The translations under genes and the position numbers were made by a program. This document shows positions 26,692-53,967 of a stretch of DNA of 64,000 nucleotides, one piece after another. The stretch is from contig OY759726.1 of NCBI GenBank assembly GCA_963662625.1, forward strand, positions 96,001 through 160,000, given 5' to 3'. This stretch comes from Nitrosopumilus sp. (GTDB lineage: Archaea; Thermoproteota; Nitrososphaeria; Nitrososphaerales; Nitrosopumilaceae). The notes under the pieces are model-generated. The model was given only the letters and a program-made list of their open reading frames with translations. It made no database searches and was not told the DNA's origin. How positions within the stretch are numbered: the first letter of the stretch is position 1; every line of letters starts with the position of its first letter.

Positions 26692-27048
26692 CTATGACGA
26701 TTTCCTGAAATCAATGGAGCATGATTTCCCGGTGTATGAGAACTCGGCGCCGTCGCCCTTCCTCAGGTCCATCATGGCGGCGAGCGCCTTCGGGATGGTG
26801 AGCCTGAGGGTGGTGTAGACCTCCCCCCTGTACCTCCTGGTCACGCTCTCGTCGAGCTTCACCTGGAAGTCGTCCACGTGCGTCCTTTCCCGGGACATCC
26901 TGACCGCGAAGCCCCCAGCCAGGGCGAGGAAGACCGCGTCGCCGGCGGCAAGGCGCATCTCCCCCCTGACGTAGCTCGGCACGTTCACGTACGTCCTGTA
27001 ATAGTCCCTCCCCTTCTGGCGGAACATCCTCATCACCTGGACCTTCAC
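26692..27048 (-). CDS. double AbrB/SpoVT-like DNA-binding protein
   Basis: VNVPSYVRGEMRLAAGD and LTIPKALAAMMDLRKGD; TTATAT box ~22 nt upstream of GTG. Confidence 0.7.
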   Translation of the reverse strand: MKVQVMRMFRQKGRDYYRTYVNVPSYVRGEMRLAAGDAVFLALAGGFAVRMSRERTHVDDFQVKLDESVTRRYRGEVYTTLRLTIPKALAAMMDLRKGDGAEFSYTGKSCSIDFRKSS

Positions 27049-27124
27049 GCAGTCGGGCAGCGCGTGTGGATATAAGGCCCGCCAGTCGCTGGACCACGTG
27101 CCAAATTGGCACGTGGTCAGGCCG

Positions 27125-27470
27125 GCGCGGATCCTCCCGCTAGTAGCCTGGGACGGACCGTCCCCGGTTCCGTCATGGGGCGCGGATCCTCCCGCTAGTA
27201 GCCTGGGACGGACCGTCCCCGGTTCCGTCATGGGGCGCGGATCCTCCCGCTAGTAGCCTGGGACGGACCGTCCCCGGTTCCGTCATGGGGCGCGGATCCT
27301 CCCGCTAGTAGCCTGGGACGGACCGTCCCCGGTTCCGTCATGGGGCGCGGATCCTCCCGCTAGTAGCCTGGGACGGACCGTCCCCGGTTCCGTCATGGGG
27401 CGCGGATCCTCCCGCTAGTAGCCTGGGACGGACCGTCCCCGGTTCCGTCATGGGGCGCGGATCCTCCCGC
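27125..27470. repeat. 55-bp perfect tandem repeat, 6 copies plus a partial
   Basis: gcgcggatcctcccgctagtagcctgggacggaccgtccccggttccgtcatggg with period 55 and no spacers. Confidence 0.95.
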
Positions 27471-27714
27471 CAGTCGCGTTGGGCACCCAACGATGGCGGC
27501 CATCTGGGCCGGAGGAGGGGGGGTTTCTTGGCCCTCCCGCTCAACTCGGGGGAATTGGGACGGCCGGGGATCCCCCCGACCACGTCCTAGAATGCCGGGG
27601 GAGCCAGGCAGGCCGCCCTCCCTGCCGCGCACTGCGGGCGGAGATGGGACGCCCCAGCTGGCCGGCCGTCGACGATGCTGGTTCTGGCCGGAGATGGCGG
27701 GTTGGTTTCTTATT

Positions 27715-27867
27715 TCCCCTACCGGAAGTGGGGACACGAGTCCCCCTCTCCCAGTTTCGGCAAGGCCCCTTGGGACCAAGCCAACCCGGCCTAAAGGCCG
27801 AGCCCCAGGAGGATGCCAGGATCCGTGACCGGATCCCGCGGCATCGTCGCCTGGGTCATCAGGGGGA
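27715..27867 (-). ncRNA. hammerhead-like ribozyme with expanded core (GUA site)
   Basis: UCCCC-CUGAUGA-[2 hairpins]-stem II GGC..GCC-GAAAC-stem III-GUA-GGGGA. Confidence 0.6.
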
Positions 27868-27978
27868 TTCCCTGGAATTTGCCCGCATTGGGGCGGTCGG
27901 CGCGTCAGGCGCTCGGTTCGATTCCGTCCGCCGGCGCTGGCCGGGCTGGACAGTGGAGGGACCTTGGGCCCCCGCCAT

Positions 27979-28425
27979 TCAGTTTCCGGAGGGGGACACA
28001 GTCCCTTCCCCGGTCCGGCCGCCGAACAGCCACAGTTCTAGGAGGCTCATGAACTTGCCGTGCCTCATGTTGGCCACCATCGGGCGGTCGAACCTGACGC
28101 CGACGTACTCGACGCCATCCTCGATCCTGTCCCCGATGGCCAGCGTCGGATCCACGACCTTGCCGCCCTCCACGAGGAAGGCGTGCTGGACCCGGATCCC
28201 GAGCGACGGGAGGCGGACGAAGCCCTCGTAATAGGATCGGCCCGCGGAGTGCATGGCGGCGTTACGGTAGCACTCCCTGATCCTGCACCCCCGCGAGGAG
28301 ATGGCGGACGACTTCTCCCTGTCCACGGCCGTGAAGCGCCGGGCATGAGAGGAGAACTTCTCCGCCTCCACGCCTCCGAACGGGATGGAAGTCAGCCCCG
28401 CCGCCCCATTCCCTTCCATTTTCAT
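27979..28425 (-). CDS. hypothetical protein with Cys-His-Asp (papain/transglutaminase-like) signature
   Basis: ECYRNA...QHAFL...VVDPT. Confidence 0.6.
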   Translation of the reverse strand: MKMEGNGAAGLTSIPFGGVEAEKFSSHARRFTAVDREKSSAISSRGCRIRECYRNAAMHSAGRSYYEGFVRLPSLGIRVQHAFLVEGGKVVDPTLAIGDRIEDGVEYVGVRFDRPMVANMRHGKFMSLLELWLFGGRTGEGTVSPSGN

Positions 28426-28535
28426 CCGACCACCTTGTAGTATGACATTTTCCGGCACCTGGGGCACCGGGTGGGCGACGGGCCGTCGCGCTGCCTGCCC
28501 AGGTACTCGCACGAGAGGCACACGTTCCGGTGCAT
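28422..28535 (-). CDS. 37-aa Zn-ribbon peptide
   Basis: Read manually: MHRNVCLSCEY...RCPRCRK; abuts or overlaps both neighbours. Confidence 0.55.
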   Translation of the reverse strand: MHRNVCLSCEYLGRQRDGPSPTRCPRCRKMSYYKVVG

Positions 28536-29018
28536 CTAGTCCTCCGCCTCCAGGTACTGCGTGGAGGGGCCGTAGAAGTCTATGACCGCGTCATCACGCA
28601 GTTCCAGCGCCTCGACATGCCCGCATTTGCAGACCCACGTGTCATGGACCGCGCCGCCGTCGCGGCGGTACAGCTCCGTGGTGGGCTGGTTCGCCCTGCA
28701 CGCGCGGCAGTTCTTGCCCCGCACCAGGGTGATCGTCTCGCTGTCCCTGTCGTCGCTGTCGGCTCGCCCCGGCGCGCCCCCCGCCACCGCGGGGATCCCG
28801 CACACCTGCCCGGACCCGTCCAGGACTATCTCCGCCGTGGCCGGCACCCGCGCCCGAAGGCACGCGGCGTACGACCTGGCGCCGTGCCGCACGATGACGG
28901 CCGCGACGTTGCCGGGCCTGAAGCCCTCCGGGAGGAGGCTCGCCGCCTCCACCGTCTTACCTGCCATGGGGATCTCGCCCCACTCTAGTTCTCCCCTGTA
29001 CTTTGCTACCTGTTCCAA
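28536..29018 (-). CDS. constant-N-terminus family copy 1, Zn-ribbon C-terminus
   Basis: GGAGGTGG SD + TTG; EQVAKYRG...GIPAVAGG, then CRAC...CKCG. Confidence 0.7.
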   Translation of the reverse strand: MEQVAKYRGELEWGEIPMAGKTVEAASLLPEGFRPGNVAAVIVRHGARSYAACLRARVPATAEIVLDGSGQVCGIPAVAGGAPGRADSDDRDSETITLVRGKNCRACRANQPTTELYRRDGGAVHDTWVCKCGHVEALELRDDAVIDFYGPSTQYLEAED

Positions 29019-29158
29019 GGAACCACCTCCAGTGATCCGTTGTCCTGCCGTGACGGCAGTGGCTGCCGCGGTTCCGCGGCGGGGGCCTGGCGGCCCCCGG
29101 TCTCGTCCCCTTCCGGCCGCGCTTGGCGGCCAGTCCCGGCAAGTGCCGGCCGGCGCAT

Positions 29159-29791: not shown

Positions 29792-30164
29792 GCCGGCTCA
29801 CATTCCCACCGCGCATGGCCGACGACACGTACCCGCGCAGCGACGCCGGGCAGCACCTCAGCACCGGCCCGGGAGCCACCCCGCTGGCCAGGAACGCCTC
29901 CCGGAGGAGTTCCGGGTTCCGGCACCTCCCGAGCCCGGCGATCGCCAAGGCGATGGTCCTCTCCCGCACCGCCTGCCTCCCGGCAGGGATGCCAGACGGC
30001 GGGAACCCCCGGATCACCTCCATGGTGCGGTTCGCGACCAGCGAGAGTGCCATCCTGCCGTCGTGCCCGGATTCCCGGAACAGGCGCCTCAGGCACCTGC
30101 CCGTGACACCGTGGCCCACGAGCTCGTCGAACACCCTGGCCAGCAGTTCCGGCGGCAGGGTCAT
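29784..30164 (-). CDS. hypothetical protein
   Basis: ATGA overlap with the stop of the upstream ATPase gene. Confidence 0.5.
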   Translation of the reverse strand: MTLPPELLARVFDELVGHGVTGRCLRRLFRESGHDGRMALSLVANRTMEVIRGFPPSGIPAGRQAVRERTIALAIAGLGRCRNPELLREAFLASGVAPGPVLRCCPASLRGYVSSAMRGGNVSRHG

Positions 30165-32341
30165 CCCCGCCCGTCCCCGAGCTCGCACAGCCGCTTGTCG
30201 AACTCCTCGATAACCCACGGGCTGTAGTCCCGGCCGTTGCCGCTGCCGTCGTGGATCTCCTCGATCACCCTCCTCGCGGTGTCGCTCTTGAGCCCGTGGT
30301 AGAAGGCGTACCTGCCAAGCATCCGGCTGTCGACCATGGGCTCGTCCGTGCCGTCCTCCCCGACGCCGGGGGTCCTGGCGAACTTTGGCAGCATGTCCCC
30401 AAGGTGCAGGTGTGGGGGTTGCCCGGCCCACCCCGCGGCGAACACGAGGGGGAAGGCGTGGATCCCGGCCGCGTAGAGGACCAGCACCCCACTCTTGACC
30501 AGGTGGCCTACCTTCCCCTTCGGGATGTCGCTGTGCCTGACCGTGGGGGCCTTCCCAGGCCTGCCGCCGGCACGCTCGATTATCTGGCCGACCGTCATCA
30601 CCCCCTCGCTGGTCTCATAGACGTAGTTCCCGAGCGACTTGCGCCACTCCGCGAACGGGATCCCCGAATATCCGGAACCCCGGACGGAGTTGGCGCACAC
30701 CATGTCGACCGGGAACGCGCCGCCCCGGCGCATGTGCTTCCCGGTGTCCTGGACCAGCGTTATCTCGTCCATTCTGGCCATGACCATGCCGGGCCGGACG
30801 TCGTCGAGCTGGAATGACCAGTAGCCGTCATCGCCGTACGTCCTGGGGATCCGGTACACCCTGACATTCCTCTTCCCGGAAGTGGAGCTCCTGTCAGACT
30901 TGATCCCGTTGGCGGACATGTACGATTTCACGCTCATTACCCCGTTGGACTCGAAGAGTGGGATCATGTCCGGATCGACCTTGAAGACCTTGATCTTGGG
31001 GTCGCGCCTTAGCACCGGGTCTATCTGCGCCGACCTGCAGGAGTCGGTCACCAGGATGCCGCGGCGTTTTCCGGCCACGAGCCTGAGCCCGATCTCCCAG
31101 GGGGAGCCGTTGGGGCTGTCCGGCTCCCTCGCATCGCACGTCAGCATCCTGTGGTAGTCATCCCACTCCGAGATCCCGTCCAGGTCGTCCTGGACTGGCC
31201 CATGGATGAGCCCGTCGATCAACCGGCATTCCGGGGACATCACGTACTCCTCGAACGACCCCTTCTCGATCGAGGATACGAACCCGGTGATCATGGAGTC
31301 TATCTCCCGGTCGACCCTCTCGCGGGCCTCGTCGCTGAGCCTCTCCCTGTCAGGCGTGGGCTTGTACTTGCGCTCGTCCCTGACGTTGACAGACAGCAGC
31401 CCGATGTGTCCGCGGTACTTGCCAACGTAGTCGTACTGGATTGGTATGCCGCACAGGTATGCCACCGTCACATCGCCCCCTACCGCTCCGGTCCCGCTGT
31501 AGGTTATGCACACGTCGATGTCGTCACCATCGATCGTGCTGGCATGCAGCCTCCTCAACACCCCGCAGTCAGGGCTGCCGAAGAGCCGCCTGTCGTAGGA
31601 TTTGAGGCTCTCCAGCGCCAGCGTCTCCAGGTCCCCGGCCGGCACCATCCCGGAAAGTTCCCGGCCCCACTCGGTGGTGGCGGCGCTGCCGGTGATCTCG
31701 ATCTCCGTGGGGACTCCGCTGAGCCTGGCGCAGTCATGCACCATCCTGACGATCTCCCCCAGGTCGACGTCCTCCCTGGCCGTCAGGGAGACCCTGGTCC
31801 CAAAGTCGCCCTTATCGGGCGTGGGGAGCCCCGTCTGGAACCCCTCCCCGGCCTTGCCCATCACGGCGTACCTTTCGCCGGTCTCGCGGCAGTGCGTCTC
31901 CAGGATCATGATGTCGGAGATGCACATGTACGCCGCGCGCCCGAAGCCGAACTGGCCGGACTCCCGCCCGTCGAAGTTGGTGCTGCGCCCGAGGACGCAG
32001 AAGACGTTGGCGAACGTGTCCCAGCTCATCCCGGAGGAGCCGAAGCCCTCCAGCACGATCTTGCGCGAGTGCGAGTCGACCTTCAGGCTGATCCTCGCCC
32101 CGTGCCCGCCACCGATCGCGGTCCTACAGGCGCGCGCCTCGTTGGCGTAGAGCTCCCTGATCCCAGACGACGGATTCGCGTAGAGGTCCTTGCTGATCCT
32201 CTGCCTGACGACGTCCTTCTCCAGGTCGGTCGAAATGAACCCGCCCGCGCTTCCGTCCGGCATGTCGCCGGCCCATCCTGTCTGCTGGAGCTTCAGCGGC
32301 TCCTCTTTCCTTATCTCTGGCTTGTAGTACTTCTCACCCAT
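30161..32341 (-). CDS. GHKL (Hsp90/rIIA-like) ATPase, paralog 1
   Basis: LYANPSSGIRELYANE, GMS, GQFGFGRAA, FGT and PTPDRERL motifs. Confidence 0.8.
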   Translation of the reverse strand: MGEKYYKPEIRKEEPLKLQQTGWAGDMPDGSAGGFISTDLEKDVVRQRISKDLYANPSSGIRELYANEARACRTAIGGGHGARISLKVDSHSRKIVLEGFGSSGMSWDTFANVFCVLGRSTNFDGRESGQFGFGRAAYMCISDIMILETHCRETGERYAVMGKAGEGFQTGLPTPDKGDFGTRVSLTAREDVDLGEIVRMVHDCARLSGVPTEIEITGSAATTEWGRELSGMVPAGDLETLALESLKSYDRRLFGSPDCGVLRRLHASTIDGDDIDVCITYSGTGAVGGDVTVAYLCGIPIQYDYVGKYRGHIGLLSVNVRDERKYKPTPDRERLSDEARERVDREIDSMITGFVSSIEKGSFEEYVMSPECRLIDGLIHGPVQDDLDGISEWDDYHRMLTCDAREPDSPNGSPWEIGLRLVAGKRRGILVTDSCRSAQIDPVLRRDPKIKVFKVDPDMIPLFESNGVMSVKSYMSANGIKSDRSSTSGKRNVRVYRIPRTYGDDGYWSFQLDDVRPGMVMARMDEITLVQDTGKHMRRGGAFPVDMVCANSVRGSGYSGIPFAEWRKSLGNYVYETSEGVMTVGQIIERAGGRPGKAPTVRHSDIPKGKVGHLVKSGVLVLYAAGIHAFPLVFAAGWAGQPPHLHLGDMLPKFARTPGVGEDGTDEPMVDSRMLGRYAFYHGLKSDTARRVIEEIHDGSGNGRDYSPWVIEEFDKRLCELGDGRG

Positions 32342-32456: not shown

Positions 32457-34661
32457 CTACTCATTCCGGACCCCGCCGCGGCGGCCGCCCTGGCTCCGGC
32501 CTTGGTCGCTGGCCAGGCGAGCGTCTATCTCCCCGATCAGGCGCATGTAGGCATCCGACCAGTGGGGGTTCCCGCCCCTCATGAACTCGGTGAACACCTC
32601 CCTGATCATGGGCTCCCGGATCCCGACGTAAAACTCGTAGAACCGCATCACGTCGGCGTCGACGTCCCTCCAGGACTGGTACACCAGCCCGGCCACCCCG
32701 GAGAACTCGGAGGACATGTCTTCCATCCTGAGGCACTTCTGCATTCCCCTTCGCATGGCCTTGCCGTACCTGTCTGGCTTCCCGTCAACCCCATGGTACA
32801 GGAGGATCGGGAGAAGTGACTGCTTGCTGACGTCGACTGCCAGCAGGCCGCCCTGGCTCATCTTCCCGGCGGCCTTTCCGGCCGGGAACTTCACCATCCT
32901 CAGGTCCCACTTGGGGTCGCATATGTCCCTCACCGTCATCACCCCCTCGCTGGTGGAGTAAATCCTCCCCCCGAGGGACTCGCGGAAGTCGGGCCACGCC
33001 ACCCCTTCAAAGTCCGGGCCGACGGAACCGGCCTTGGCGTACCTGAACCCGAACTCGTCGCTCTGGTAGTTCCAGGCGATGGCCGTGAGCCCGTTCTGCA
33101 CGGATTCGAACTCCTCCCCTACCAGCACCAGGTTTTCCGGCAGGTCATCGGAGGCCATGGACGTCGCCTTTTTGTGGCCCCAGGAGGTGTACACCCTGGT
33201 TTTCCTGGGGACCTTCGCCGATTTTTTCACCTTGATGCCGTTCTCCTTCATGTACCGCCTGACGGGGGTGAGGCCTTCGGCCTCCAGCATGTCATACGCC
33301 GCGGCGTCGGGGATCCTGACCACCTTAATTTCTCGGTCGTGCTCCTCGATCGCCTCGAGGATTGCCGAGCTGAACGCCCTGGTTATGAGGACCTTCGGCC
33401 CGCTGATGATACTCCCGAGCGGCCAGCATCCCCCGCCTATGCACCCGCTTGCCTCCACCGCCATGGCGCTCCTGTAGCCGGCGTACATGGCGCGGTGCCT
33501 GAACGGCACCAGCCCCTCGTACACCCCGCGCCCGACGTGGTTCGTCAGGCAGTCAAGCAGCCTGCATGATGGATCGGACAGGTAGCCTGTCAGCGTCCTC
33601 TTCCCATGGGACATTACCCTGGCCTCGATCAGGGCGTCGACCCTCTCGCTGACCCTGCCGGCGGCCTCGTCGCTGAGCCTCTCCCTGTCAGGCGTGGGCT
33701 TGTACTTGCGCTCGTCCCTGACGTTGACCGACACCAGTCCGATGTGTCCGCGGTACTTGCCAACGTAGTCGTACTGGATTGGTATGCCGCACAGGTATGC
33801 CACCGTCCTGCCGCCGCCCACTCCGGGCGAGGCCATCACGACCACCTCGATCTCGTCGTCACCCACGTCTTGGACGGTGGGCTTCCTGAGGATCGCCTCG
33901 GCGTAATCGCCATCAACGCGGAACCGCCCGGCGGATATCTCCCCAAGCGTCTTCCGCGTGACGGCGCCCTCGTACTCCGAAACCCCGTTGTCCGGGTTAC
34001 GCCCCCTGCCGTCGAGGACGATCTCAGTGGGGACCCCGCTCATCTCGGCGCAGGCGTGCACCATCCTGACGATCTCCCCCAGGTCGACGTCCTCCCTGGC
34101 CGTCAGGGAGACCCTGGTCCCAAAGTCGCCCTTATCGGGCGTGGGGAGCCCCGTCTGGAACCCCTCCCCGGCCTTGCCCATCACGGCGTACCTTTCGCCG
34201 GTCTCGCGGCAGTGCGTCTCCAGGATCATGATGTCGGAGATGCACATGTACGCCGCGCGCCCGAAGCCGAACTGGCCGGACTCCCGCCCGTCGAAGTTGG
34301 TGCTGCGCCCGAGGACGCAGAAGACGTTGGCGAACGTGTCCCAGCTCATCCCGGAGGAGCCGAAGCCCTCCAGCACGATCTTGCGCGACCCGTACTCCAC
34401 CGTGAGACGGATGCTCGCCCCGTGCCCGCCACCGATCGCGGTCCTGCAGGCGCGCGCCTCGTTGGCGTAGAGCTCCCTGATCCCAGACGACGGATTCGCG
34501 TAGAGGTCCTTGCTGATCCTCTGCCTGACGACGTCCTTCTCCAGGTCGGTCGAAATGAACCCGCCCGCGCTTCCGTCCGGCATGTCGCCGGCCCATCCTG
34601 TCTGCTGGAGCTTCAGCGGCTCCTCTTTCCTTATCTCTGGCTTGTAGTACTTCTCACCCAT
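32457..34661 (-). CDS. GHKL (Hsp90/rIIA-like) ATPase, paralog 2
   Basis: N-terminal ~200 aa nearly identical to paralog 1; divergent C-terminus. Confidence 0.8.
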   Translation of the reverse strand: MGEKYYKPEIRKEEPLKLQQTGWAGDMPDGSAGGFISTDLEKDVVRQRISKDLYANPSSGIRELYANEARACRTAIGGGHGASIRLTVEYGSRKIVLEGFGSSGMSWDTFANVFCVLGRSTNFDGRESGQFGFGRAAYMCISDIMILETHCRETGERYAVMGKAGEGFQTGLPTPDKGDFGTRVSLTAREDVDLGEIVRMVHACAEMSGVPTEIVLDGRGRNPDNGVSEYEGAVTRKTLGEISAGRFRVDGDYAEAILRKPTVQDVGDDEIEVVVMASPGVGGGRTVAYLCGIPIQYDYVGKYRGHIGLVSVNVRDERKYKPTPDRERLSDEAAGRVSERVDALIEARVMSHGKRTLTGYLSDPSCRLLDCLTNHVGRGVYEGLVPFRHRAMYAGYRSAMAVEASGCIGGGCWPLGSIISGPKVLITRAFSSAILEAIEEHDREIKVVRIPDAAAYDMLEAEGLTPVRRYMKENGIKVKKSAKVPRKTRVYTSWGHKKATSMASDDLPENLVLVGEEFESVQNGLTAIAWNYQSDEFGFRYAKAGSVGPDFEGVAWPDFRESLGGRIYSTSEGVMTVRDICDPKWDLRMVKFPAGKAAGKMSQGGLLAVDVSKQSLLPILLYHGVDGKPDRYGKAMRRGMQKCLRMEDMSSEFSGVAGLVYQSWRDVDADVMRFYEFYVGIREPMIREVFTEFMRGGNPHWSDAYMRLIGEIDARLASDQGRSQGGRRGGVRNE

Positions 34662-44967: not shown

Positions 44968-44969
44968 GC

Positions 44970-46344: not shown

Positions 46345-46497
46345 CACAGCCCCCGCCGGACGGCAGGCACCTGGCGTGGGAGGGGTGATCAGGCCCGGCG
46401 GGCCCCGGGGTTCCCCCCGGCCAGTCCCTGGCCAGTCCGTAGTCCCCTAGGGAGATCGTGCCGCCGGGTGGGGGGGGCGTCTACCCTCCCGCCGCCG

Positions 46498-46665: not shown

Positions 46666-46667
46666 GG

Positions 46668-47258
46668 CTAGTCCCCCCTGAACAGGGTAAAGTCGGAGCC
46701 GTACCCCAGGAAGTGGTCGCACAGCCACATGCCGTCCTTCCAGTCCTTGGCCTCGCCGTCGCTGCTCACCAGCATCCCGTCCCCGAGGTGGTGCTTGGCC
46801 ACGATCAGGCACGCGTTGACAGCCAGGTCGTACGGCTTGTACGCGGTCTTGCAGCAGTTAAAGTGGAACTGCCTGCCGTCCCTTTCGGTAACGTGCCCGG
46901 AGCTCTTCCTCTGGAGGAGGAATGTCTCGTGCGAGCAGTCGCCGTCGCACATCCTGGTGTCTATCTCGTCCCCGGCGAACCACTGGCTCGACGGCCCGTC
47001 GCCGCCGACCATGACGCCCGACGCGTTCTCGGACGGCCAGGTCAGCCTGAGGGACTGCTCCTTGTGCCCGCACGCCGCCGGGCCGTTGAAGCGGATCTCG
47101 TTGGCGGTGAACTGCGGGAATTTCCCCCCGACGCCGTTTGCCAGCTTGACCCCCAGGTGTTCCAGCGGCTTGACCAGCCGCTTGAAGTCGGAGGCCACCT
47201 TCCTGAACTCTGCGGGCGGGAAGGATGGCTCGGTGTACCAGTAGTGGCTGTAGCCCAT
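46668..47258 (-). CDS. conserved phage/plasmid-type hypothetical protein
   Basis: MGYSHYW...IRFNG...HETF...CKTAYKPYDLAV...VSSDG. Confidence 0.7.
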   Translation of the reverse strand: MGYSHYWYTEPSFPPAEFRKVASDFKRLVKPLEHLGVKLANGVGGKFPQFTANEIRFNGPAACGHKEQSLRLTWPSENASGVMVGGDGPSSQWFAGDEIDTRMCDGDCSHETFLLQRKSSGHVTERDGRQFHFNCCKTAYKPYDLAVNACLIVAKHHLGDGMLVSSDGEAKDWKDGMWLCDHFLGYGSDFTLFRGD

Positions 47259-47259
47259 C

Positions 47260-47601
47260 CTAGTACGCCCCCTTGAGCGCGCGCACTCCCCCGTACGTGG
47301 GGGAGGGGGTCCCGCCGGAACCCCCTTCGGCCGCGGGAATCCCGCGGGCAGCGCATGAGCCCCCCGCCACCGCGGGGATCCCGCACACCTGCCCGGACCC
47401 GTCCAGGACTATCTCCGCCGTGGCCGGCACCCTGGCATTCAGGGTCACCGCGTACGACCTGGCGCCGTGCCGCACGATGACGGCCGCGACGTTGCCGGGC
47501 CTGAAGCCCTCCGGGAGGAGGCTCGCCGCCTCCACCGTCTTACCTGCCATGGGGATCTCCCCCCACTCTAGTTCTCCCCTGTACTTTGCTACCTGTTCCA
47601 A
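47260..47601 (-). CDS. constant-N-terminus family copy 6, short tail
   Basis: Constant module, SCAARGIP, then 24 aa. Confidence 0.6.
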   Translation of the reverse strand: MEQVAKYRGELEWGEIPMAGKTVEAASLLPEGFRPGNVAAVIVRHGARSYAVTLNARVPATAEIVLDGSGQVCGIPAVAGGSCAARGIPAAEGGSGGTPSPTYGGVRALKGAY

Positions 47602-47726
47602 GATACCACCTCCGTGATATGTCGTGCCGCTCTCGCGGTCGGCGGGGGCCATGCCCCCGCGGGGCGGGCATCGTCTTCCCGGTGCCTCGGTAGTCGTTCA
47701 TCCCGATCGGGATGGGTTGTCGTATT

Positions 47727-47853
47727 CCCCGACCCGCGCCCGGCACACGCCGGGTTCGGGTTTCGGCGAGGCCCGCGCGGGACCAAGCCAACCCGGCCAG
47801 TGAGGCCGAGCATCCGGCGGCTGTCTGTTCCGCCAGCCGGAATCCTCAGGGGG
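47727..47853 (-). ncRNA. hammerhead-like ribozyme with expanded core (duplicate of 46079-46205)
   Basis: Identical sequence at offset 1648. Confidence 0.6.
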
Positions 47854-47995
47854 TTTGCCCGCATCCAAGGCGGGTCACGGCTCTGAGAGTGGCCGTGATT
47901 CGCCCCGCCGCGCCGCAGGCGCCCGGGACACGTCATTTCCGGGCAGTTCCCCGGAAGTGGCGCTGGGCGCCGGCGGCGCCGGCCTGGGTTCCGGC

Positions 47996-48907
47996 CTAGT
48001 GGCCGGCCTTGTGGATGACGTGCTGGTAGCCGGTGGCGGCGATCCTGGCCGATTCCAGGCTGTCTGCCGCCATCGAGGCTAACTTGGACACCTGCATGCC
48101 GCAGCCGTCCGCCCCCAGCATGTCATTCACGGCGCGGATCGCGCTGTGTATGGAGGACACGGCGGCCCGTCCCTCGTCGCAAAGGTCACGCGTGCCGAAC
48201 GCCGTGAGGATCTCCTCGGCGCACTTTGTGGCCGATGCCACGTGGTGCAGCGCCTCAGTCACCCCCGACCTCTCCGCGTCGTTGTGCGGAAGGGACGATT
48301 CCAGGCTGGCGCGCGCGTGTCCGAGGTCCCTTATGACCCCGAGGTTCGCCTCGTGTATCCCCGCGCCGACGGCCTTCAGCCTCTTCAGCCTGCCGCTGGC
48401 CATGGCGTGCACGTGGTCGACGCACCTCCATCCTTCGGTGACCCCGATTATGGTCTCCAGGTCTGACGCCCCGGCCAACTTGACGCCCCTCATGGTGTCC
48501 GAGAGCCCGATTTCAAGATCCTCGGGATAGGCGTCCAGTTTCTCCGGGTACTGCTTGCCGAGCATGTTGTCGTCGATGTACTTTTGCAGCGCCGCCGACT
48601 CCTTTGCCGGCAGGGCAGGCGCCGTCCGCCGCCCGGCCCCGGCCCTGTAACCGTCGGACCTTGAAAGCCTCAGCGGGTCGTTGGTAGTGGCCAGCGTTAT
48701 GGCCCCGCCCTCGACGAATCCGACCATGTCCTTGCCGCACCTGAACGAGACGATGCCGCCGGAGACCTCGATCCTGATCCATCTGCTGGTGTTGATGGCC
48801 TTCCTGACCTTCCCGCACACGTACTGCGCGCTGTATTTAGTGCCGCCTATGGTGACGGTCTGGACGTTTCCCTTTGCCTGTTTTTTGCTCATGTTGTCCT
48901 GTTCCAT
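47996..48907 (-). CDS. hypothetical protein, paralog family B
   Basis: GGAGGTGG SD; shares IGG..Y...VC...F.C N-domain with 49963-51639 and 53050-53646. Confidence 0.7.
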   Translation of the reverse strand: MEQDNMSKKQAKGNVQTVTIGGTKYSAQYVCGKVRKAINTSRWIRIEVSGGIVSFRCGKDMVGFVEGGAITLATTNDPLRLSRSDGYRAGAGRRTAPALPAKESAALQKYIDDNMLGKQYPEKLDAYPEDLEIGLSDTMRGVKLAGASDLETIIGVTEGWRCVDHVHAMASGRLKRLKAVGAGIHEANLGVIRDLGHARASLESSLPHNDAERSGVTEALHHVASATKCAEEILTAFGTRDLCDEGRAAVSSIHSAIRAVNDMLGADGCGMQVSKLASMAADSLESARIAATGYQHVIHKAGH

Positions 48908-48954
48908 GATACCACCTCCTGGTGTTGTGTTGTTCCGGTCTTGCCGGAGACGAT

Positions 48955-49157
48955 GCCATTCCGGGCATCCGTGCTGAGAAAGAAAACTCAGTGGGTTTGG
49001 GGGGATCGCTCCCCCCGCGTCGCGACACGGATGATGTCGCGTCCCCGTCCGGGGGCCGGGCCGTGGAATCGGCCCTCGGGTTCCACACCGGCCTGCCTGT
49101 CAGCCCTCTCGGGTAACGCCGGTTTGAACTCGGATGTCAGGTCACGAAAAAATGGTT
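48955..49157 (-). repeat. ~200-bp structured intergenic repeat, also at 51691-51893
   Basis: Offset 2736; many hairpins; compensatory changes at the gene-proximal end. Confidence 0.9.
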
Positions 49158-49842
49158 ATAGGTTTGGCACAAGTCTGCACGATGCCCAGTGCTCGCCGGA
49201 GAACTCGCTCACGCCGCAGAACCTGTCGTAGACCACGGCGTGGCCGCTCTCCACCAGGAGCTCGTTGAGGGACTTTGCCGGGGGCTTCCCGTCCTCGAGG
49301 CACCACACCATCCCTATCTCGCGGTCGTACGACCCCCCCGGCTGGCCGGAGTCCAGTCTGTACATCGCCTGCGAGAAAAGGGGGCATTGCGCCGAGGCAA
49401 AGTCCTTCGCCTCTCCGTATCCCGGTTCCCCCCTTTCGGGGGTGTTGACCAGGGCCAGCCTCACCTTGGTCCCGCCTATCGCCAGGGTATCGCCGTCGAT
49501 TATCTTCGTGACGATCCCCTTGTGGAGCAGGCTCCTTGGCTTGTCTGCTGGTGTCGGCTCTGCATCTGGCTGTCGCGCTTCGCCGTCCCCCCCGCTGCCG
49601 GCGGGGCTGGCGTCCTTGTGACCCTGTATCTGCGCCGTCGTGTCCGTGAGCGCGCCTCCCATCGCATCGTCGACGGCGCCTATCCCGTCGGCAAGGAGTG
49701 CCCCTCCCTGCGCGGCGGTGTCGGCTGCCTGTCCCGATATGACGAAGGGAACCACGTAGGCGTACGTGAGGGTCGACACCCCCATCACGATTGCCATCCC
49801 CAGGACCAAAAGGCCGAGTCTTTTGAGGAATTGTCTTGCCAT
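49156..49842 (-). CDS. membrane-anchored thermonuclease (SNase family)
   Basis: IIDGDT, VRLALVNTPE, YDRE and LNELLVESGHA motifs; N-terminal TM. Confidence 0.88.
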   Translation of the reverse strand: MARQFLKRLGLLVLGMAIVMGVSTLTYAYVVPFVISGQAADTAAQGGALLADGIGAVDDAMGGALTDTTAQIQGHKDASPAGSGGDGEARQPDAEPTPADKPRSLLHKGIVTKIIDGDTLAIGGTKVRLALVNTPERGEPGYGEAKDFASAQCPLFSQAMYRLDSGQPGGSYDREIGMVWCLEDGKPPAKSLNELLVESGHAVVYDRFCGVSEFSGEHWASCRLVPNL

Positions 49843-49962
49843 CTGTTTTTCACCTTTTCAGCGTACTCCACACCGGCCTGCCTGTCAGCCGCCTTCGCGG
49901 TATTGCCGGTTTGAGTCCGCACGTCAGGTCGCGAAAAAAGGTTGGTTGGATTCCTGAAGGAA

Positions 49963-51639
49963 TCAGACCCTGGATGGGGAGGGAGCCCCACCCTTCCCTG
50001 CTCGGCTCGCAAGAATCACGTTTGCGACTTCCAGGCGGGTCCTCTGCTCCGCTAGGAGCTTGGACCTGCCCGGGAAGGGCCTGCAGGTTTCGAGTTCGGA
50101 GGCGAAGTCCTTCACCGCGCGGAGGAAGGCGTCAGCCATCTCCGGGGTGGCGCTTCGGATCATCCCCACGACCTCGGCCGAACCGATCAATGCGTTGTTG
50201 GTCTCGGGGTAAGAGTCCTCACCCCACCAGTACTTCTCGCCAAGGCGGTTCCCCTTGACGTATTGCAGGGCGGCGCGGTAGTTCGCGCCTCCCCCGTAGA
50301 GGGCCATCTCCCTGGCGCGGGAGAGGATCTTCCTCTTGGTGCCGACAGATTCCCTGACGGAGTCAGGGTTCGGGTGGGAGCGGAGCCCGTCCAGCTCGCC
50401 CTTGATGGTCCCGATGATCCGCTTGAGTCGGGGAAGGTCGGCCTCCTCCACCTCTCGGATCTGCTCCCCGAACGTCAGGGAGTCTTGGGGTTCCGGGCTG
50501 GGGCTGCTCCGCCTCCCGGCTCGGGCGGCGATCCCATCAGGGCGCCCGACGCAGTCCGCGCCGCGGACGCTGTCCCCCCAGCTCTTCCCGGTGGGAACGC
50601 GCTGGCCGCGCCCCCTCATCCCGACCTCGCGGCGCCTAGAGCGGCCGGCGACGCCAGGTTCGTACTCTGGGGAGCGCGTCCCGGAAGCCGGAACGGCCGG
50701 CAGCGCGCCGTCCCCGAACTCCGCGGACTTGAACGCGTCCACGGACTCGAGCCTCGCGGCCCCCATCTCCCTGGTCACCACCGCGTGGAGTCCGTGGCCG
50801 GGCGCCACCGCCGCCTTACGCGAGGACCTCGCGGCCCTGAAGGCGGAGGCGGTGAGGCACTTTGCGGCGTCTGCCAGCGTGCACTGCGGCTCCCCGGTCC
50901 AGGTGGTCGTGCCAAGGTACTCGCCGGACGTCCCGAACGCGTACCCCTTCACTGGCCTGGCGGGTTCCGCGGCCCGCTCCTGTGCCGCCCACCCATTGCC
51001 GTAGTACGGCTTGGGCGCGCGCCTCTGGCGCCTCTCGGCCATGCGGGTGGAGTGCTCGTCCATCAGGGCGAACTGCACCTCCTTGCCCTCGGGCACCTTC
51101 TCCATCTCAACGATGGGGGTGCCGCGGTTATGGTGGACGATGTCCCCGATCTCGACCCCATCGATTGGGAGTGAGATCACGTCGTCGTTCCACCTGGTGA
51201 CGTGGAGCGCGCCGCCCTTCCCGTCCTTGAAAATCACGGACGAGAAGGAGCCTCCAGTGGTGTCCTCCCCCACGCAGTTGACGAAGTCGTCTATCGCCCC
51301 GTCGTCATACGGCACCTCGAAGGCATCCATGCTGGTCTCGATGGTCTCGAGCGAGTGCCATTGCGCCAGCGGGCTCCTTTTCAGTTTCAGGATCTCCCCG
51401 GTGCCCAGCATCTCGATCCCGTCTAGGGTCAAGACTGCCAGGGAAGTCCCCTTGCAGTGGAACCGGATCCCGGTCCCATCCCTGCTTGCCTGCACCGGGA
51501 CCTTTAGTCCCAGCTTGCTCCTTATGCGCTTGCACACATGGGAGACTTTGTACTGCTCGCCGCCGACAATGATCATGCCGTTGGCGCTTCCCTTTTTGGG
51601 TCTGCTACTTGTGTTTGGATTTTTTTGATCGCATTTCAT
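49963..51639 (-). CDS. hypothetical protein, paralog family B
   Basis: GGAGGTG SD; shared N-domain and YVKGNRLGEKY..DSYPE segment. Confidence 0.7.
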   Translation of the reverse strand: MKCDQKNPNTSSRPKKGSANGMIIVGGEQYKVSHVCKRIRSKLGLKVPVQASRDGTGIRFHCKGTSLAVLTLDGIEMLGTGEILKLKRSPLAQWHSLETIETSMDAFEVPYDDGAIDDFVNCVGEDTTGGSFSSVIFKDGKGGALHVTRWNDDVISLPIDGVEIGDIVHHNRGTPIVEMEKVPEGKEVQFALMDEHSTRMAERRQRRAPKPYYGNGWAAQERAAEPARPVKGYAFGTSGEYLGTTTWTGEPQCTLADAAKCLTASAFRAARSSRKAAVAPGHGLHAVVTREMGAARLESVDAFKSAEFGDGALPAVPASGTRSPEYEPGVAGRSRRREVGMRGRGQRVPTGKSWGDSVRGADCVGRPDGIAARAGRRSSPSPEPQDSLTFGEQIREVEEADLPRLKRIIGTIKGELDGLRSHPNPDSVRESVGTKRKILSRAREMALYGGGANYRAALQYVKGNRLGEKYWWGEDSYPETNNALIGSAEVVGMIRSATPEMADAFLRAVKDFASELETCRPFPGRSKLLAEQRTRLEVANVILASRAGKGGAPSPSRV

Positions 51640-51910
51640 GAATCAATACACCTCCAATTGGCGTCGGTGACCGGTCAAGCCGGCCATGGAGCCATTCCGG
51701 ACTCCCGTGCTGAGAAAGAAAACTCAGTGGGTTTGGGGGGATCGCTCCCCCCGCGTCGCGACACGGATGATGTCGCGCCCCCGTCCGGGGGCCGGGCCGT
51801 GGAATCGGCCCTCGGGTTCCACACCGGCCTGCCTGTCAGCCCTCTCGGGTAACGCCGGTTTGAACTCGGATGTCAGGTCACGAAAAAATGGTTTGGGAAT
51901 GCTGAGGGTG

Positions 51911-52627
51911 TCAGCACCCGTGAACCCTGGCCCACACCTCGCCGCCGAATGAGCTGCCGCTGCAAGCCGACCTCGCCAACTCCGCGCCGCCTGACTGCAG
52001 CAGCAGGGCGTTGACCGAGACGCCGGTCCCGGACTGGCCGCACCAGACCTTGGCGTATGGCGAGCCGTACCCGTCGGTTCCGAGCCCCACGTCAATGACG
52101 TAGAGGGCGGGGCCGCCGACCGGGCAGAAGGAGTTCAGGGCGGAGTACGCCCCCCCATAGTGGGCGTTGGTCCTGACCATCGTGAGGTTCAGGATCCTGC
52201 CGTTTATGGAGAGGGTGTCCGGATCGATGATCCGGTCCACGCCGCCTGCCGTCGCCTGCCCAATGTCGGGCGGGTCCGAGTAGTCGTGGGCCGTTTCGGC
52301 CCCGTCCAACTCGGAGCAGAGGGAGAGCCCGCACACGACCCTTCCGGCGTCTCCCGCCGGTTCAGGCTCCTCCTCCGGAACCGGCTCCTCCACCGCCGCA
52401 GGCGCTTCTGGCGCCGGGTCGGGGAGGGAGACGTTCAGGATTTGGGGCCCGCAGGACGAGTGGGAGCACTGGCCTTCGCTGACAACCCTGTCCGCCGCCG
52501 GCGCGCTCCAGGAACCATGGGCACCCATCCCGCCGTTAAGGTAGGCAAAGCCGACCGAAAAGGCAAGGACCATGACCATGGCCACCAGGGACGCGACGAT
52601 GACGTTTCTAACAAAGTTGCTTGCCAT
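51911..52627 (-). CDS. membrane-anchored degenerate SNase-like protein
   Basis: IIDPDTL...KVWC...VNALLLQSG; RL..NTPE and YxR motifs missing. Confidence 0.7.
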   Translation of the reverse strand: MASNFVRNVIVASLVAMVMVLAFSVGFAYLNGGMGAHGSWSAPAADRVVSEGQCSHSSCGPQILNVSLPDPAPEAPAAVEEPVPEEEPEPAGDAGRVVCGLSLCSELDGAETAHDYSDPPDIGQATAGGVDRIIDPDTLSINGRILNLTMVRTNAHYGGAYSALNSFCPVGGPALYVIDVGLGTDGYGSPYAKVWCGQSGTGVSVNALLLQSGGAELARSACSGSSFGGEVWARVHGC

Positions 52628-52775
52628 CTTCTATCTCCTGTATTTTCGCCCTCCACACCGGCCTGCCTGTCAGCCGCCTTCGCGGTATTGCCGGTTTGAG
52701 GATGAATGTCAGGTCACAAAAATAGAGGGTTCCACCGCCAAGTGGCGGGTGGTGTCGGGGCCGCCTGGCGGCCCG

Positions 52776-52964
52776 TCAGTCGAACAGACTGTAGAACTGG
52801 CTGTCTGTAAGACGTGGGACTTCGCGGGTCTCGGAGTACATGTTTGACACGTACCTGCCGTGTTCCGGAAGGTAGATGCCCTTCCCCGGAACGTATCTCC
52901 CGATGCCCTGCAGTATGCGGGCGACGTCCCTGTGAGAGTGGCCCTCTGCCACTGAAGTTGCCAT
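52776..52964 (-). CDS. 62-aa hypothetical protein directly behind a hammerhead
   Basis: AUG lies 1 nt after the predicted cleavage site. Confidence 0.55.
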   Translation of the reverse strand: MATSVAEGHSHRDVARILQGIGRYVPGKGIYLPEHGRYVSNMYSETREVPRLTDSQFYSLFD

Positions 52965-53010
52965 GGACCCCGTTCCGGGGTTTCGGCCATCAAGGCCTCG
53001 TCAGCATGGC
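52960..53010 (-). ncRNA. type I hammerhead ribozyme
   Basis: GCCAUG-CUGACGA-GGCC(UUGAU)GGCC-GAA-ACCCCG(GAA)CGGGGU-C-CAUGGC; full core, three perfect stems. Confidence 0.93.
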
Positions 53011-53049
53011 TTCGTTTAGCGAAAAAAGGGGGAGGGTCCCCCGGGGTGG

Positions 53050-53646
53050 CTACCGCCTGCCGCCCATGCCGTCCCGGAGCCTTTGCCAGCGGGACTTTTT
53101 CGGTTCCACGACCTTTTTGGCGCAGAACTCGAGCCGCCGGAGGACCCCGCGGGGGAGGCACTCTTCCAGGTCAGACCTGGACTCCCCCCGGAGCAGCTGC
53201 TCCAGAACCGCCTTGCACTCGGCCGGCCCCATGGCTTGGAATTGCTCCCTGTACCAATCGGAACCGCGGAAGTCCGGCGGGTTGCAGACCAGGCACTCCT
53301 CCTCGTACTCGTCCCCGTGGGGATTGACGTGGTCGTGCGCGTCCGCTTGATCCTTTTCGATCAGTTTGGCGCCCAGCAGGTTCTGCTCGACCACCCGAGC
53401 CGATGGGAGTTCCCTCCATCCGGTGCCGATTGGCTTCCCGGAGACTACGTCCGTCAGTACGTCGCCGTCACTTATGGCGACAACATCGTTCTTGCAATAA
53501 AATTTGCAGGTTTGGCCCTCTGGGCCGGCTTGGGCGCGTACGGCGTCGTCGAGGCCTAGCCTCTCCTGTACGTGCTTGCAGACGCTTTTGGTTAAGAACG
53601 TCCTATCTCCTATGGAGATTTGCTTCATGACTGTTTGTTTTGCCAT
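53050..53646 (-). CDS. hypothetical protein, paralog family B
   Basis: ISIGDRTF...VCK...KFYC N-domain; H..PHG...CLVC. Confidence 0.7.
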   Translation of the reverse strand: MAKQTVMKQISIGDRTFLTKSVCKHVQERLGLDDAVRAQAGPEGQTCKFYCKNDVVAISDGDVLTDVVSGKPIGTGWRELPSARVVEQNLLGAKLIEKDQADAHDHVNPHGDEYEEECLVCNPPDFRGSDWYREQFQAMGPAECKAVLEQLLRGESRSDLEECLPRGVLRRLEFCAKKVVEPKKSRWQRLRDGMGGRR

Positions 53647-53695
53647 GCGACGCCCGTGTCGGGCGTTTCGACCATTCAGGTCTCATCAGGCAGGC
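53642..53695 (-). ncRNA. type I hammerhead ribozyme
   Basis: GCCUGC-CUGAUGA-GACC(UGAAU)GGUC-GAA-ACGCCC(GACAC)GGGCGU-C-GCAUGGC. Confidence 0.92.
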
Positions 53696-53743
53696 TGTCT
53701 GGGCGTCTTTCAAAAATTAAATACTCGGGGGTCCAACATCAGG

Positions 53744-53827
53744 TGGTGGGGGCTCAGTTGTCGTAATATCCAACTGTGTTCATCATGGAACAGTCAGTTG
53801 TCGTTTCATTCATCATCGCCCTCACCA
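53744..53827 (-). ncRNA. box C/D sRNA
   Basis: Terminal stem, AUGAUGA (C), 12 nt, CUGA (D'), 7 nt, AUGAUGA (C'), 22 nt, CUGA (D). Confidence 0.8.
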
Positions 53828-53896
53828 TCCAAGCCCGTCCCAAGGGACGGCCATCCCAAATCGAACACTAAAATAACTCAGGGGCCGCCTGGAGGT

Positions 53897-53967
53897 GGCG
53901 AGGGGTCAGATTTAGAATCAAATCACCATGTGATTCATAGTGCAAATCGTTCATCATCCCCCTCGCC
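53897..53967 (-). ncRNA. box C/D sRNA
   Basis: 9-bp terminal stem GGCGAGGGG/CCCCUCGCC, AUGAUGA, 12 nt, AUGA (D'), AUGGUGA (C'), 13 nt, CUGA. Confidence 0.8.

Follow-up and report, generated by a model that had tools for sequence, protein, structure and literature searches.

We report here the analysis of a 27-kb block of minus-strand genes, at positions 26692-53967 of a 64,000-nucleotide stretch of Nitrosopumilus sp. DNA (hereafter the window), which corresponds to genome positions 96,001-160,000 of a single 1.86-Mb contig (OY759726.1). The block is probably the accessory (cargo) arm of a large element of about 110 kb that resembles an integrative and conjugative element (ICE), in a high-GC chromosome of the Nitrosopumilaceae type. 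This reading is based on the observed anatomy of the block, its non-conservation, the recurrence of its gene set with conjugation genes in other genomes, the covariation of a repeated RNA element, here named R1, and the folds of its proteins. We infer that one contiguous ICE-like element, with ends of its own, spans roughly genome positions 120-234 kb. The class of element is known; its Gly-Gly cassette, encoding an N-terminal module that ends in Gly-Gly (GG-module) and accompanied by a JAMM peptidase, the R1 RNA, and a pair formed by an Hsp90-like protein and a 228-aa protein appear undescribed.

The conjugation, partition and replication genes are located on the same chromosome arm, 5-75 kb past the right edge of the window, where they would provide the maintenance and transfer functions of the element, with an extra TBP, methylases and an integrase-like open reading frame (ORF) among them. 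The main genes to the right of the window are listed below in genome coordinates, with the bit scores of their profile matches.

160.7 kb: ParM-like actin of the actin-like protein (ALP) type
166.1 kb: weak prepilin-peptidase-like ORF (Peptidase_A24 18 bits, cut-off 26.5)
174036-177599: VirD4/TraG-type coupling ATPase (TrwB_AAD_bind 30.4 bits, cut-off 20.5)
177.6-179.5 kb: TadC-like gene (T2SSF 62 bits, the sole T2SSF match in the genome)
191,529-192,098 (locus L062, 15529-16098): second, divergent TBP paralog; the canonical TBP is at 5639-6199 of the window
195586-197463: TraG/VirB4-type P-loop ATPase (P-loop_TraG 59.2 bits, cut-off 25.8; AAA_10 39.5 bits, cut-off 27.5)
197.5-199.0 kb: FlaI/VirB11-type ATPase (T2SSE 103 bits)
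Right of the window: weak VirB6-like ORF (TrbL 18.1 bits, cut-off 25.9)
217-222 kb: PriL-like and PolB genes
225.0-228.2 kb: D5-type primase-helicase (D5_N, Pox_D5, DUF5906), unique in the genome
233.1-234.5 kb: integrase-like ORF of 435 aa (PF00589 15.8 bits at 233522-234046, cut-off 27.1)

The PolB and PriL genes are second paralogs, 42% and 33% identical, respectively, to the copies located elsewhere in the genome. The integrase-like ORF, whose recombinase-like motifs were recognised by eye only, is the sole PF00589-like match genome-wide, and core-looking genes follow beyond it. A PAPS-reductase-like gene, methylases and a Holliday-junction-resolvase-like nuclease were also found in this region. 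To the right of a lower-GC defence block (55514-62613 of the window), which stands between the 27-kb block and the rest of the proposed element, are a DsbA-like gene, the ParM-like actin, an N6/N4 methylase, a seventh GG-module gene and a RecB-like nuclease. According to the proposed model, this restriction-modification (R-M)/HerA block would have been inserted between the accessory arm and the transfer part.

As judged from sequence, this gene kit matches that of the thaumarchaeal ICEs in its main parts. The main-text passages of Krupovic et al. (2019, PMC6563490) describe those elements (NCAV2-E1/E2, NitEve-E6 and others) as carrying VirB4/VirD4 ATPases, TadC, FlaI/PilT, a prepilin peptidase, pilins, and TFIIB with ParB, without a relaxase and with a median size of 64 kb. 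The VirD4/TraG-type and VirB4/TraG-type ATPases, TadC and the FlaI/PilT-type ATPase are also present here, as are a candidate prepilin-peptidase-like gene (weak here, clear in the related genomes G109 and G016), an element-borne basal transcription factor, own replication genes including PolB, and a large size; likewise, no relaxase was found in the scanned ORFs, and no oriT was found. Unlike in the elements of those passages, the partition gene is ParM/actin-like and not ParB, and the extra transcription factor observed is TBP instead of TFIIB; the integrase can be recognised only weakly, and no att sites were found. The same passages do not mention an accessory arm that carries GG-modules, Hsp90-like genes and R1, and the supplements of that paper may list a related island; the words "ArdC" and "actin" do not occur in its main text.

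Evidence for joining the block to these genes also comes from other genomes. The ParM-like gene is accessory, being present in 16 of 151 genomes (a tally that includes the unpublished genome G092). Its distance to R1 matches is about 1.5 kb in G109 (at two loci), G052 and G146, and 12 kb in G016; in G095 it is found at the edge of the island. The TraG-type ATPase, found in 41 of the 151 genomes, is present in all seven genomes with strong R1 matches, and is 2 kb from the ParM-like gene in G002 and G045. Moreover, G109 contains two copies, 84-92% identical, of a relative of the element of about 15-17 kb, each with an ALP, a methylase, a prepilin peptidase, TadC, and a SWIM gene directly upstream of an ArdC-like gene, an adjacency that the window shares. 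From this linkage of the ParM-like gene, the TraG-type ATPase, R1 and island genes, the block is therefore read as the accessory arm of one ICE-like element.

The gene set of the block recurs in shuffled order. With tblastn, relatives of the GG-module, of the Hsp90-like, ArdC-like and SNase-like proteins, and of the 228-, 196-, 134-, 129- and 180-aa ORFans were found across G016, G095 and G045; a Pfam scan of 115 ORFs from the loci of those other genomes revealed little beyond methylase, SNase, DUF932 (in the G095 island) and DDE transposase. Additionally, the Hsp90-like profile detected 23 loci in the GTDB set, two of which share one contig, and these loci also contain ArdC-like (5 loci), GG-module (5-8), 196-aa (4) and SNase-like (3) relatives. 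Conserved synteny among relatives, which would contradict the integrated segment proposed in the earlier note, was looked for and not found: DNA matches to 34722-53967 are short (at most 313 nt, in 5 of 40 relatives), the Hsp90-like gene is rare (6 of 151 genomes of the taxonomic family), and the distance between the island and CofH differs, from 15 kb here to about 140-580 kb in G095, G016 and G045. On the right flank, DNA synteny was uninformative, the relatives being too diverged. A separate mini-locus in the same genome (1,808,009-1,810,310; L032, 7961-9968) contains a distant third JAB-like ORF (30% identity), a 93%-identical DNA copy of the gene at 53050-53646 and a rearranged copy of the region upstream of it.

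The contig has a GC content of 63.4% and carries a full-length archaeal 16S rRNA gene. A host of the Nitrosopumilaceae type is plausible despite the high GC content, because the named relatives of the signature genes of the block belong to Nitrosopumilaceae and other Nitrososphaerota. The mechanical ORF list of the block is crowded on both strands. The gene set was therefore defined as ORFs in which the GC content of third codon positions (GC3) exceeds that of second positions (GC2), combined with inspection of the translations; it comprises 29 credible genes in 26692-53646, all 29 on the minus strand, the orientation that the earlier note had stated, and the plus-strand ORFs are antisense shadows, typical for DNA of 66% GC. 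The genes are tightly packed, as is evident at several junctions: the JAB start (44134) and the ArdC-like stop (44128) overlap, a 4-nt overlap is found at 40619/40622, and gaps of 1-2 nt at 44967/44970 and 47258/47260. Mean GC3 is 0.85-0.87 in the arm, 0.89-0.93 in the neighbouring 10-kb bins and 0.68 in the R-M block. Expression of the arm would proceed from a single strand in short units, with a reused structured leader at the head of every unit.

Just three of the 29 genes are named by Pfam, namely Prok-JAB, SNase and ArdcN (the last just below its cut-off); NCBIfam adds weak matches to HSP90, desampylase and AbrB-like models, and PADLOC detected no system apart from JAB-domain matches. Scans with Pfam, PHROGs, PADLOC and NCBIfam agree with the earlier note that no integrase, relaxase, VirB4 or capsid gene is recognisable within the block coordinates. 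The unique segments of the block are reproduced without differences in contigs of three public runs from one study. The joints that would have indicated structural variants in these contigs were rejected, having sides that are short (21-26 nt) or lie in known repeats (44976/45340 and 52650/49866). The features of the block and its borders are given below in window coordinates.

24378-25756, plus strand: copy 2 of a duplicated 1.38-kb segment (222-aa ORF and nucleoside 2-deoxyribosyltransferase), left edge of the variable tract
26210-26454, no strand: 39-nt tandem repeats, followed by 55-nt tandem repeats at 27069-27563
26692-27231, minus strand: 179-aa ORF, weak AbrB-like match (22 bits, under cut-off)
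27979-28521, minus strand: 180-aa ORFan, homologue in the G095 island (53% identity)
28536-29018, minus strand: GG-module copy 1 (28770-29018) with Cys-rich tail, 160 aa
29159-29791, minus strand: 210-aa membrane/coiled-coil protein with five 42-nt (14-aa) repeats
30161-32341, minus strand: Hsp90-like GHKL ATPase paralog 1, 726 aa counted from the conserved Met
32457-34661, minus strand: Hsp90-like GHKL ATPase paralog 2, 734 aa, 50-53% identical to paralog 1
34791-36134, minus strand: three small ORFs (205 aa; Zn-ribbon-like, about 100-140 aa; 157 aa)
36131-36817, minus strand: GG-module copy 2 with two Zn-ribbon repeats, 228 aa
37405-39228, minus strand: GG-module copy 3 with 520-aa acidic C-terminal region, 607 aa
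39587-42045, minus strand: six small ORFans in a row; the 134-aa (40218-40622) and 129-aa (40984-41373) members have homologues in the G016 and G095 islands
42262-42948, minus strand: 228-aa ORFan, partner of the Hsp90-like protein
42951-43433, minus strand: GG-module copy 4 with SWIM-type CxC..CxH motif, 160 aa
43550-44134, minus strand: JAMM/MPN+ (Prok-JAB) peptidase, catalytic motif intact, Cys-rich N-terminal extension
44128-44967, minus strand: ArdC-like protein, candidate single-stranded DNA (ssDNA)-binding N-domain and HExxH motif
44970-45953, minus strand: GG-module copy 5 with two repeats of about 120 aa, 327 aa
46668-47258, minus strand: 196-aa Cys/His-rich ORFan, directly downstream of a GG-module gene here and in G016
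47260-47601, minus strand: GG-module copy 6 with 30-aa tail, 113 aa
47996-48907, minus strand: 303-aa protein with a second type of N-terminal module
49075-49157, minus strand: R1 copy 1, downstream of the SNase-like gene
49156-49842, minus strand: SNase-like nuclease, 228 aa, N-terminal hydrophobic segment
49860-49944, minus strand: R1 copy 2, ending 17 nt upstream of the SNase-like start codon
49963-51639, minus strand: 558-aa protein with the second N-terminal module
51811-51893, minus strand: R1 copy 3
51911-52627, minus strand: SNase-like paralog, 238 aa
52645-52729, minus strand: R1 copy 4 (90 bits), ending 17 nt upstream of the start codon
53050-53646, minus strand: 198-aa protein with the second N-terminal module, 93%-identical DNA copy at genome 1,809 kb
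55514-62613, minus strand: lower-GC defence block with PstI/BsuBI-type endonuclease, N6 methylase, HerA-type ATPase with 607-aa partner, and C5 methylase

Six genes of the block open with a near-identical core of about 260 nt, which consists of a Shine-Dalgarno-like GGAGGTGGT, a TTG start and 83 codons. Two types of conserved hairpin-rich leader are located upstream of the core, and the sequences diverge abruptly beyond it. The whole cassette (hairpins, strong Shine-Dalgarno sequence and 83-codon module ending in Gly-Gly) thus comprises about 350 near-identical nucleotides, which would have spread ahead of six different genes, fused in frame. The seventh copy, at genome 164.2 kb, is 67% identical and is located beside the ParM-like and methylase genes, to the right of the R-M block. 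All seven copies in this genome run in frame into unrelated C-terminal domains, and a relative of the 157-aa protein of the block is fused behind a GG-module in another organism (P0057).

An exhaustive HMMER search of 1.84 billion proteins detected the GG-module in 22, of which 6 come from this genome. The alignment includes 14 foreign homologues, two long partial matches (P0053 and P0058) having been left out; 7 of the 14 end exactly at ..GIPAVAGG, 3 have 2-6 further residues and 4 have longer tails. The second Gly is invariant, and the first is kept in at least 90% of the sequences. The predicted structure of the module has a predicted local distance difference test score (pLDDT) of 86-98 over residues 1-80, and its best match in the structure atlas, with a score of 0.89, has no name.

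The peptidase encoded in the island (43550-44134) matches Prok-JAB with 66 bits in Pfam, has a full JAMM motif, and its best NCBIfam match is "desampylase". It is an extra paralog, 52% identical, of the housekeeping JAB at genome 331.9 kb. When the complex of the GG-module and the island JAB was predicted, a score of 0.87 was obtained, compared with 0.00 for the best control; 58 of the 80 solved complexes attained this mark, as did 2 of the 110 mismatched pairs, although both counts are rough, our own alignments having been used. Contact agreement between runs was at least 85% and the partner pLDDT at least 79. The island JAMM is thus predicted to hold the Gly-Gly tail in its active site, with tail residues 75-83 contacting JAB residues E78, H135, H137, S145 and D148. 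The peptidase would then cut after Gly-Gly and yield a free C-terminal protein and a free ubiquitin-like tag; whether the JAB cleaves at this position is, in our judgement, an evenly balanced question. A rule connecting fused modules with an island JAB was considered and rejected, as G095 has fused modules and no JAB in the loci fetched.

Similar arrangements have been described in other systems. In lambdoid and T1 phages, TAPI consists of a ubiquitin-like (Ubl) domain, a Gly-rich linker and a C-terminal domain, and is encoded beside the JAB-bearing TAPK (Iyer et al. 2006, PMC1779556); the ubiquitin precursor of Caldiarchaeum is cut by Rpn11 (PMC6043591). A small domain, a Gly-rich junction, a further domain and a nearby JAB gene are common to these systems and to the block, and Gly-Gly processing, proposed or shown in them, is inferred here. 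Unlike those ubiquitin-like proteins, the GG-module is a candidate beta-grasp only, and it is joined to seven unrelated partners through a near-identical DNA cassette, in the setting of an archaeal ICE instead of a phage tail operon or a full E1/E2/E3 operon. Nif11/NHLP-type leaders also have a conserved N-terminal part of about 80 aa ending in ..AGG, hypervariable C-terminal parts and many copies per genome, and the GG-module resembles them in all these respects. Unlike in those leaders, the C-terminal parts here are whole domains of up to 520 aa, the stand-alone homologues end at Gly-Gly without a core peptide, and the Pfam scan of the block showed no C39 peptidase/ABC exporter or modification enzyme.

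The second recurrent feature of the island, R1, is an element of about 85 nt common to two of the repeats detected in the block (D14 and D18). All four copies in this genome are within the island, where each SNase-like gene has one copy on its upstream and one on its downstream side. R1 was found in 11 of the 151 family genomes, with strong matches in 7, and is confined to this element family; it recurs as multiple same-strand copies in other islands, and in G095 it brackets three consecutive small genes. Across 30 distinct copies, 94.8% of the cells of the proposed structure are paired, compared with 29-55% when partners are slid. Covariation was observed as compensatory changes in 10 of 13 pairs, and none of 500 shuffles reached the observed score; one closing pair, for example, is U-A in 15 copies, C-G in 14 and U-G in 1. 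RNAalifold independently predicted 16 pairs, 13 of them compensatory, with a longer closing helix. The fold is assigned to the sense strand because U-G pairs are present, and it includes a variable terminal hairpin. The presence of repeated structured leaders, reported in the earlier note, is thus borne out by the repeat and covariation analyses.

As located with mechanical ORF calls, the 5' end of R1, a T-run, is at most 23 nt from the upstream stop in 24 of 34 copies, and its 3' end is at most 46 nt, often 1-8 nt, from the downstream start in 22 of 34. In the closing helix, the 3' strand consists of a purine-rich tract ahead of the next start codon. This position suggests an intercistronic RNA through which the end of one unit would be coupled to the translation or processing of the next; R1 would fill the spacer between stop and start and gate the downstream cistron. 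At gathering thresholds, tRNA is the sole Rfam match in the window. The ribozymes that the earlier note had proposed to cut the transcript were not found: over 25500-54500, Rfam gave no ribozyme match even at E<=1, a verdict limited to known families. A relation to hepatitis delta virus (HDV)-like ribozymes, which have a similar order of helix strands, was considered and dropped, the candidate pseudoknot CCUG/CAGG being invariant, so that no covariation support is possible. In a literature search for the invariant strings of R1, the matches listed (10 of 37) were all to unrelated primers.

Several other RNA features were noticed. Downstream of two R1 copies, the leaders of about 170 nt at 48908-49074 and 51640-51810 (minus strand) are 95% identical to each other and form four or five consecutive hairpins before the Shine-Dalgarno-like GGAGGTGGT and the start codon. 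The only rows of the Rfam search at E<=1 were weak C/D-box small RNA-like matches of 19-20 bits (E 0.4-0.9), far under the gathering scores, at 53752-53820 (minus strand), upstream of the last island gene. In a Nitrosopumilus sp. chromosome (L038), 13 matches to the R1 model are found within 21 kb, with strong (53-57 bits) and weak (27-28 bits) subtypes alternating, which suggests a paired or composite form of R1.

The 726- and 734-aa Hsp90-like genes are tandem paralogs. A model of the family (pLDDT 74.7) matched Hsp90, TRAP1 and HtpG in Foldseek with E values of 4e-15 to 6e-13 over 480-650 columns, all 37 matches listed being Hsp90-type, and the Bergerat-fold motifs (N-box and Gly-rich lid) are conserved across the family alignment. 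At the sequence level, no Pfam HSP90 or HATPase_c match and no PHROG match was obtained; NF010683 gave 23 bits (equivalog cut-off 455), and a profile search of the PDB gave E 0.14. None of the 41 database relatives has a Pfam domain, and two of them are hypothetical proteins of Cenarchaeum symbiosum A. The earlier note had called these proteins rIIA-like GHKL proteins; the GHKL assignment stands, and rIIA-like is not the best description, given the Hsp90-like fold of all Foldseek matches listed and the absence of a PHROG match. Like Hsp90, HtpG and TRAP1, they have the fold over about 500 columns, a GHKL N-domain and a middle domain, and a weak NCBIfam HSP90 match. Unlike these chaperones, they show 11-16% identity to them, have no Pfam match, occur as multiple paralogs per island, are on a mobile element and are paired with the 228-aa ORFan. 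This partner shares the locus with the Hsp90-like gene in 8 of 23 other loci, usually directly downstream, and had no usable match in the structure atlas. Members of the Hsp90-like family are also present on contigs labelled Gammaproteobacteria (L047), Patescibacteria (L050) and Rhodobiaceae (L054), the Patescibacteria-labelled locus also having the 228-aa partner, which is either cross-domain spread or mis-binning. A literature search on thaumarchaeal or sponge genomic islands with Hsp90 retrieved nothing relevant.

The ArdC-like, JAB and SNase-like genes named in the earlier note are indeed present. The ArdC-like protein (44128-44967) matches ArdcN (PF08401) with 21.4 bits, just under the cut-off of 22.6, and PHROG 7245, "anti-restriction protein", with E 4.8e-12, and its homologue in G109 reaches 27.7 bits with ArdcN. 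An HExxH motif can be read in the C-terminal half, where no domain model matched, and no PDB sequence matched the protein at E<=1. The SNase-like gene at 49156-49842 matches PF00565 with 24.9 bits (cut-off 21) and a PHROG endonuclease with E 1e-10; the three genes with the second N-terminal module alternate with the two SNase-like membrane proteins. As for the SWIM gene, the CxC-x9-CxH motif is present in 42951-43433, and no Pfam (PF04434) match was obtained at E<=0.01; the direct upstream neighbour of the ArdC-like gene in G109 reaches 22.2 bits with SWIM (cut-off 19.6). The ArdC-like gene is the only one that would suggest an anti-defence role, and this label is not supported for the block as a whole.

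It is important to mention the observations that weigh against an ICE-like element and against the role proposed for the Gly-Gly cassette. The integrase-like ORF is under the PF00589 cut-off and has no hmmscan match at E<=0.01, and the prepilin peptidase (18 bits) and VirB6/TrbL (18 bits) candidates are likewise below their cut-offs. No TFIIB or ParB was found among the scanned ORFs (some small ORFs were outside the scan), and the element is not set apart by a shift in GC. The search for att repeats was negative, the longest word shared by the end zones being 15 nt (13-17 nt in control regions), and no tRNA gene was found in genome 78-96 kb or 158-236 kb. Between the block and the conjugation genes are some 20 kb of other genes, including the DsbA-like gene, which has DNA matches in relatives. 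As for the cassette, the result of the complex prediction may reflect likeness to solved JAMM-Ubl complexes, which is likeness and not binding; the JAB homologues of five other island-bearing genomes are far from the islands, some of which have fused modules; and no E1 or E2 was found in the island, the only ThiF/E1 gene of the genome being 520 kb away.

Some of these points would also fit a hypervariable island owned by the host, carrying defence, surface and host-interaction genes, that happens to lie near an unrelated ICE and is not transferred with it. Such an island would account for the adjoining canonical defence genes (R-M, HerA and C5 methylase), the giant FG-GAP/DUF285 surface protein and other unconserved genes that flank the block, the fragments of the same families at 1.78 and 1.81 Mb, the modest GC3 shift and the failure to find end markers. 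We regard it as rather improbable. In several other genomes, R1 and the same accessory genes are found together with the ParM-like gene and the TraG-type ATPase; G109 has its two relatives, 84-92% identical to each other, with the transfer-associated genes described above; and the seventh GG-module gene is located across the R-M block from the arm, next to the ParM-like and methylase genes. The proposal of the earlier note that the block is an integrated plasmid or provirus segment can be kept in its plasmid-like part, the block being accessory and non-syntenic with ICE-type genes beyond its right edge. Its provirus part scarcely deserves credence: the size, the single orientation, the many small ORFans, the PHROG tail-protein matches of the JAB domain and the ArdC-like relatives in two viral contigs would be compatible with a viral origin, but no capsid, portal or terminase match was found for the 29 genes in Pfam or PHROGs, the tail matches are confined to the JAB domain, the two viral contigs have nothing but the ArdC-like gene in common with the island, and the Hsp90-like, 228-aa and GG-module proteins have no relatives in the viral contig collection.

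Two further explanations concern the way in which the block would function. If it were a leading region of the bacterial type, the arm would enter the recipient first as ssDNA, R1 and the hairpin leaders would serve as single-strand promoters or sites of initiation of the Frpo/ssi type, and the ArdC-like gene and its neighbours would act early against defence. Like bacterial leading regions, the block is a one-orientation group of small genes with an ArdC-like gene beside a JAB-fold peptidase, with nuclease and orphan methylase genes, and with repeated structured non-coding elements ahead of genes; ArdC, JAB, SNase, orphan methylases and DUF932 (seen in G095) are gene types of such regions. 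R1 folds on the sense strand only, and a RadC/JAB gene is close to the ArdC-like relative in one of the two phage-like contigs. Unlike in those regions, most genes of this archaeal block fall outside known anti-defence families (PADLOC 0 of 29, JAB-domain matches aside), neither relaxase nor oriT was found, and R1 abuts stops and starts as an intercistronic RNA would, its 3' strand being the purine tract before the start codon. Moreover, archaeal conjugation proceeds without typical relaxases and might transfer double-stranded DNA, according to PMC6563490. We consider a leading region of this kind quite unlikely. An integron-like array, in which single-gene cassettes would be captured and shuffled through R1 acting as a folded recombination site, seems less likely still. 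R1 does bracket single genes (both SNase-like genes here and the three small genes in G095), gene order is shuffled between genomes, and the structure is strand-specific with a variable terminal hairpin; but no recombinase is in or near the array, no PF00589 match above the cut-off was found genome-wide, no clear cassette variants were found in the contigs of the three runs, and R1 is not a simple imperfect palindrome, its invariant single-stranded blocks being unlike the attC consensus.

Within the reading as an ICE-like accessory arm, we tentatively propose a more specific hypothesis, which may well prove wrong. The Gly-Gly/JAMM pair could be a portable tag-and-release system, in which a ubiquitin-like module, spread by recombination ahead of unrelated genes, turns their products into fusion precursors, and cleavage of these by the dedicated peptidase times or licenses the release of cargo proteins after cell entry, perhaps with a conjugatable tag, and R1 could be a new pseudoknot-capable class of intercistronic RNA of Nitrosopumilaceae ICE-like elements, possibly a new class of ribozyme or riboswitch, coupling termination, processing or the binding of a ligand or protein to downstream translation.

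Other features of the window were also noticed. The 1.38-kb segment is present in two copies (4102-5480 and 24378-25756), 20,276 nt apart and with about one mismatch, which bracket core genes (TBP, CofG/H and TldD) and the gene of the giant surface protein. Recent duplication, a scar of recombination or a problem in the assembly could each explain the repetition. The surface protein (13524-21263, minus strand) has 2,579 aa, about 21 FG-GAP repeats, DUF285 repeats and SdrD-B/PKD-like domains, and its DNA shows periodic repeats of 204 and 75 nt. In the defence block, which has a GC content of about 55%, 57972-61592 (minus strand) encodes the HerA-type ATPase (PADLOC HerA model, E 1e-64) and the 607-aa protein, which had no match in Pfam, PHROGs, PADLOC or NCBIfam; the two are possibly an uncharacterised HerA-partner defence pair.

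The mobile elements of ammonia-oxidising archaea are barely characterised, and no genetic tools are known for these organisms. If Hsp90 is rare in archaea, the divergent Hsp90-like proteins are noteworthy. The locus ties a recognisable core of conjugation, partition and replication genes to a recurrent arm of almost wholly unknown genes, and R1 provides a compact, strongly covarying RNA candidate outside Rfam. If the proposed processing is true, the Gly-Gly module and its own JAMM peptidase would constitute a minimal Ubl processing system without E1 or E2 on an archaeal mobile element, and would bear on the origin and spread of Ubl/JAB partnerships.

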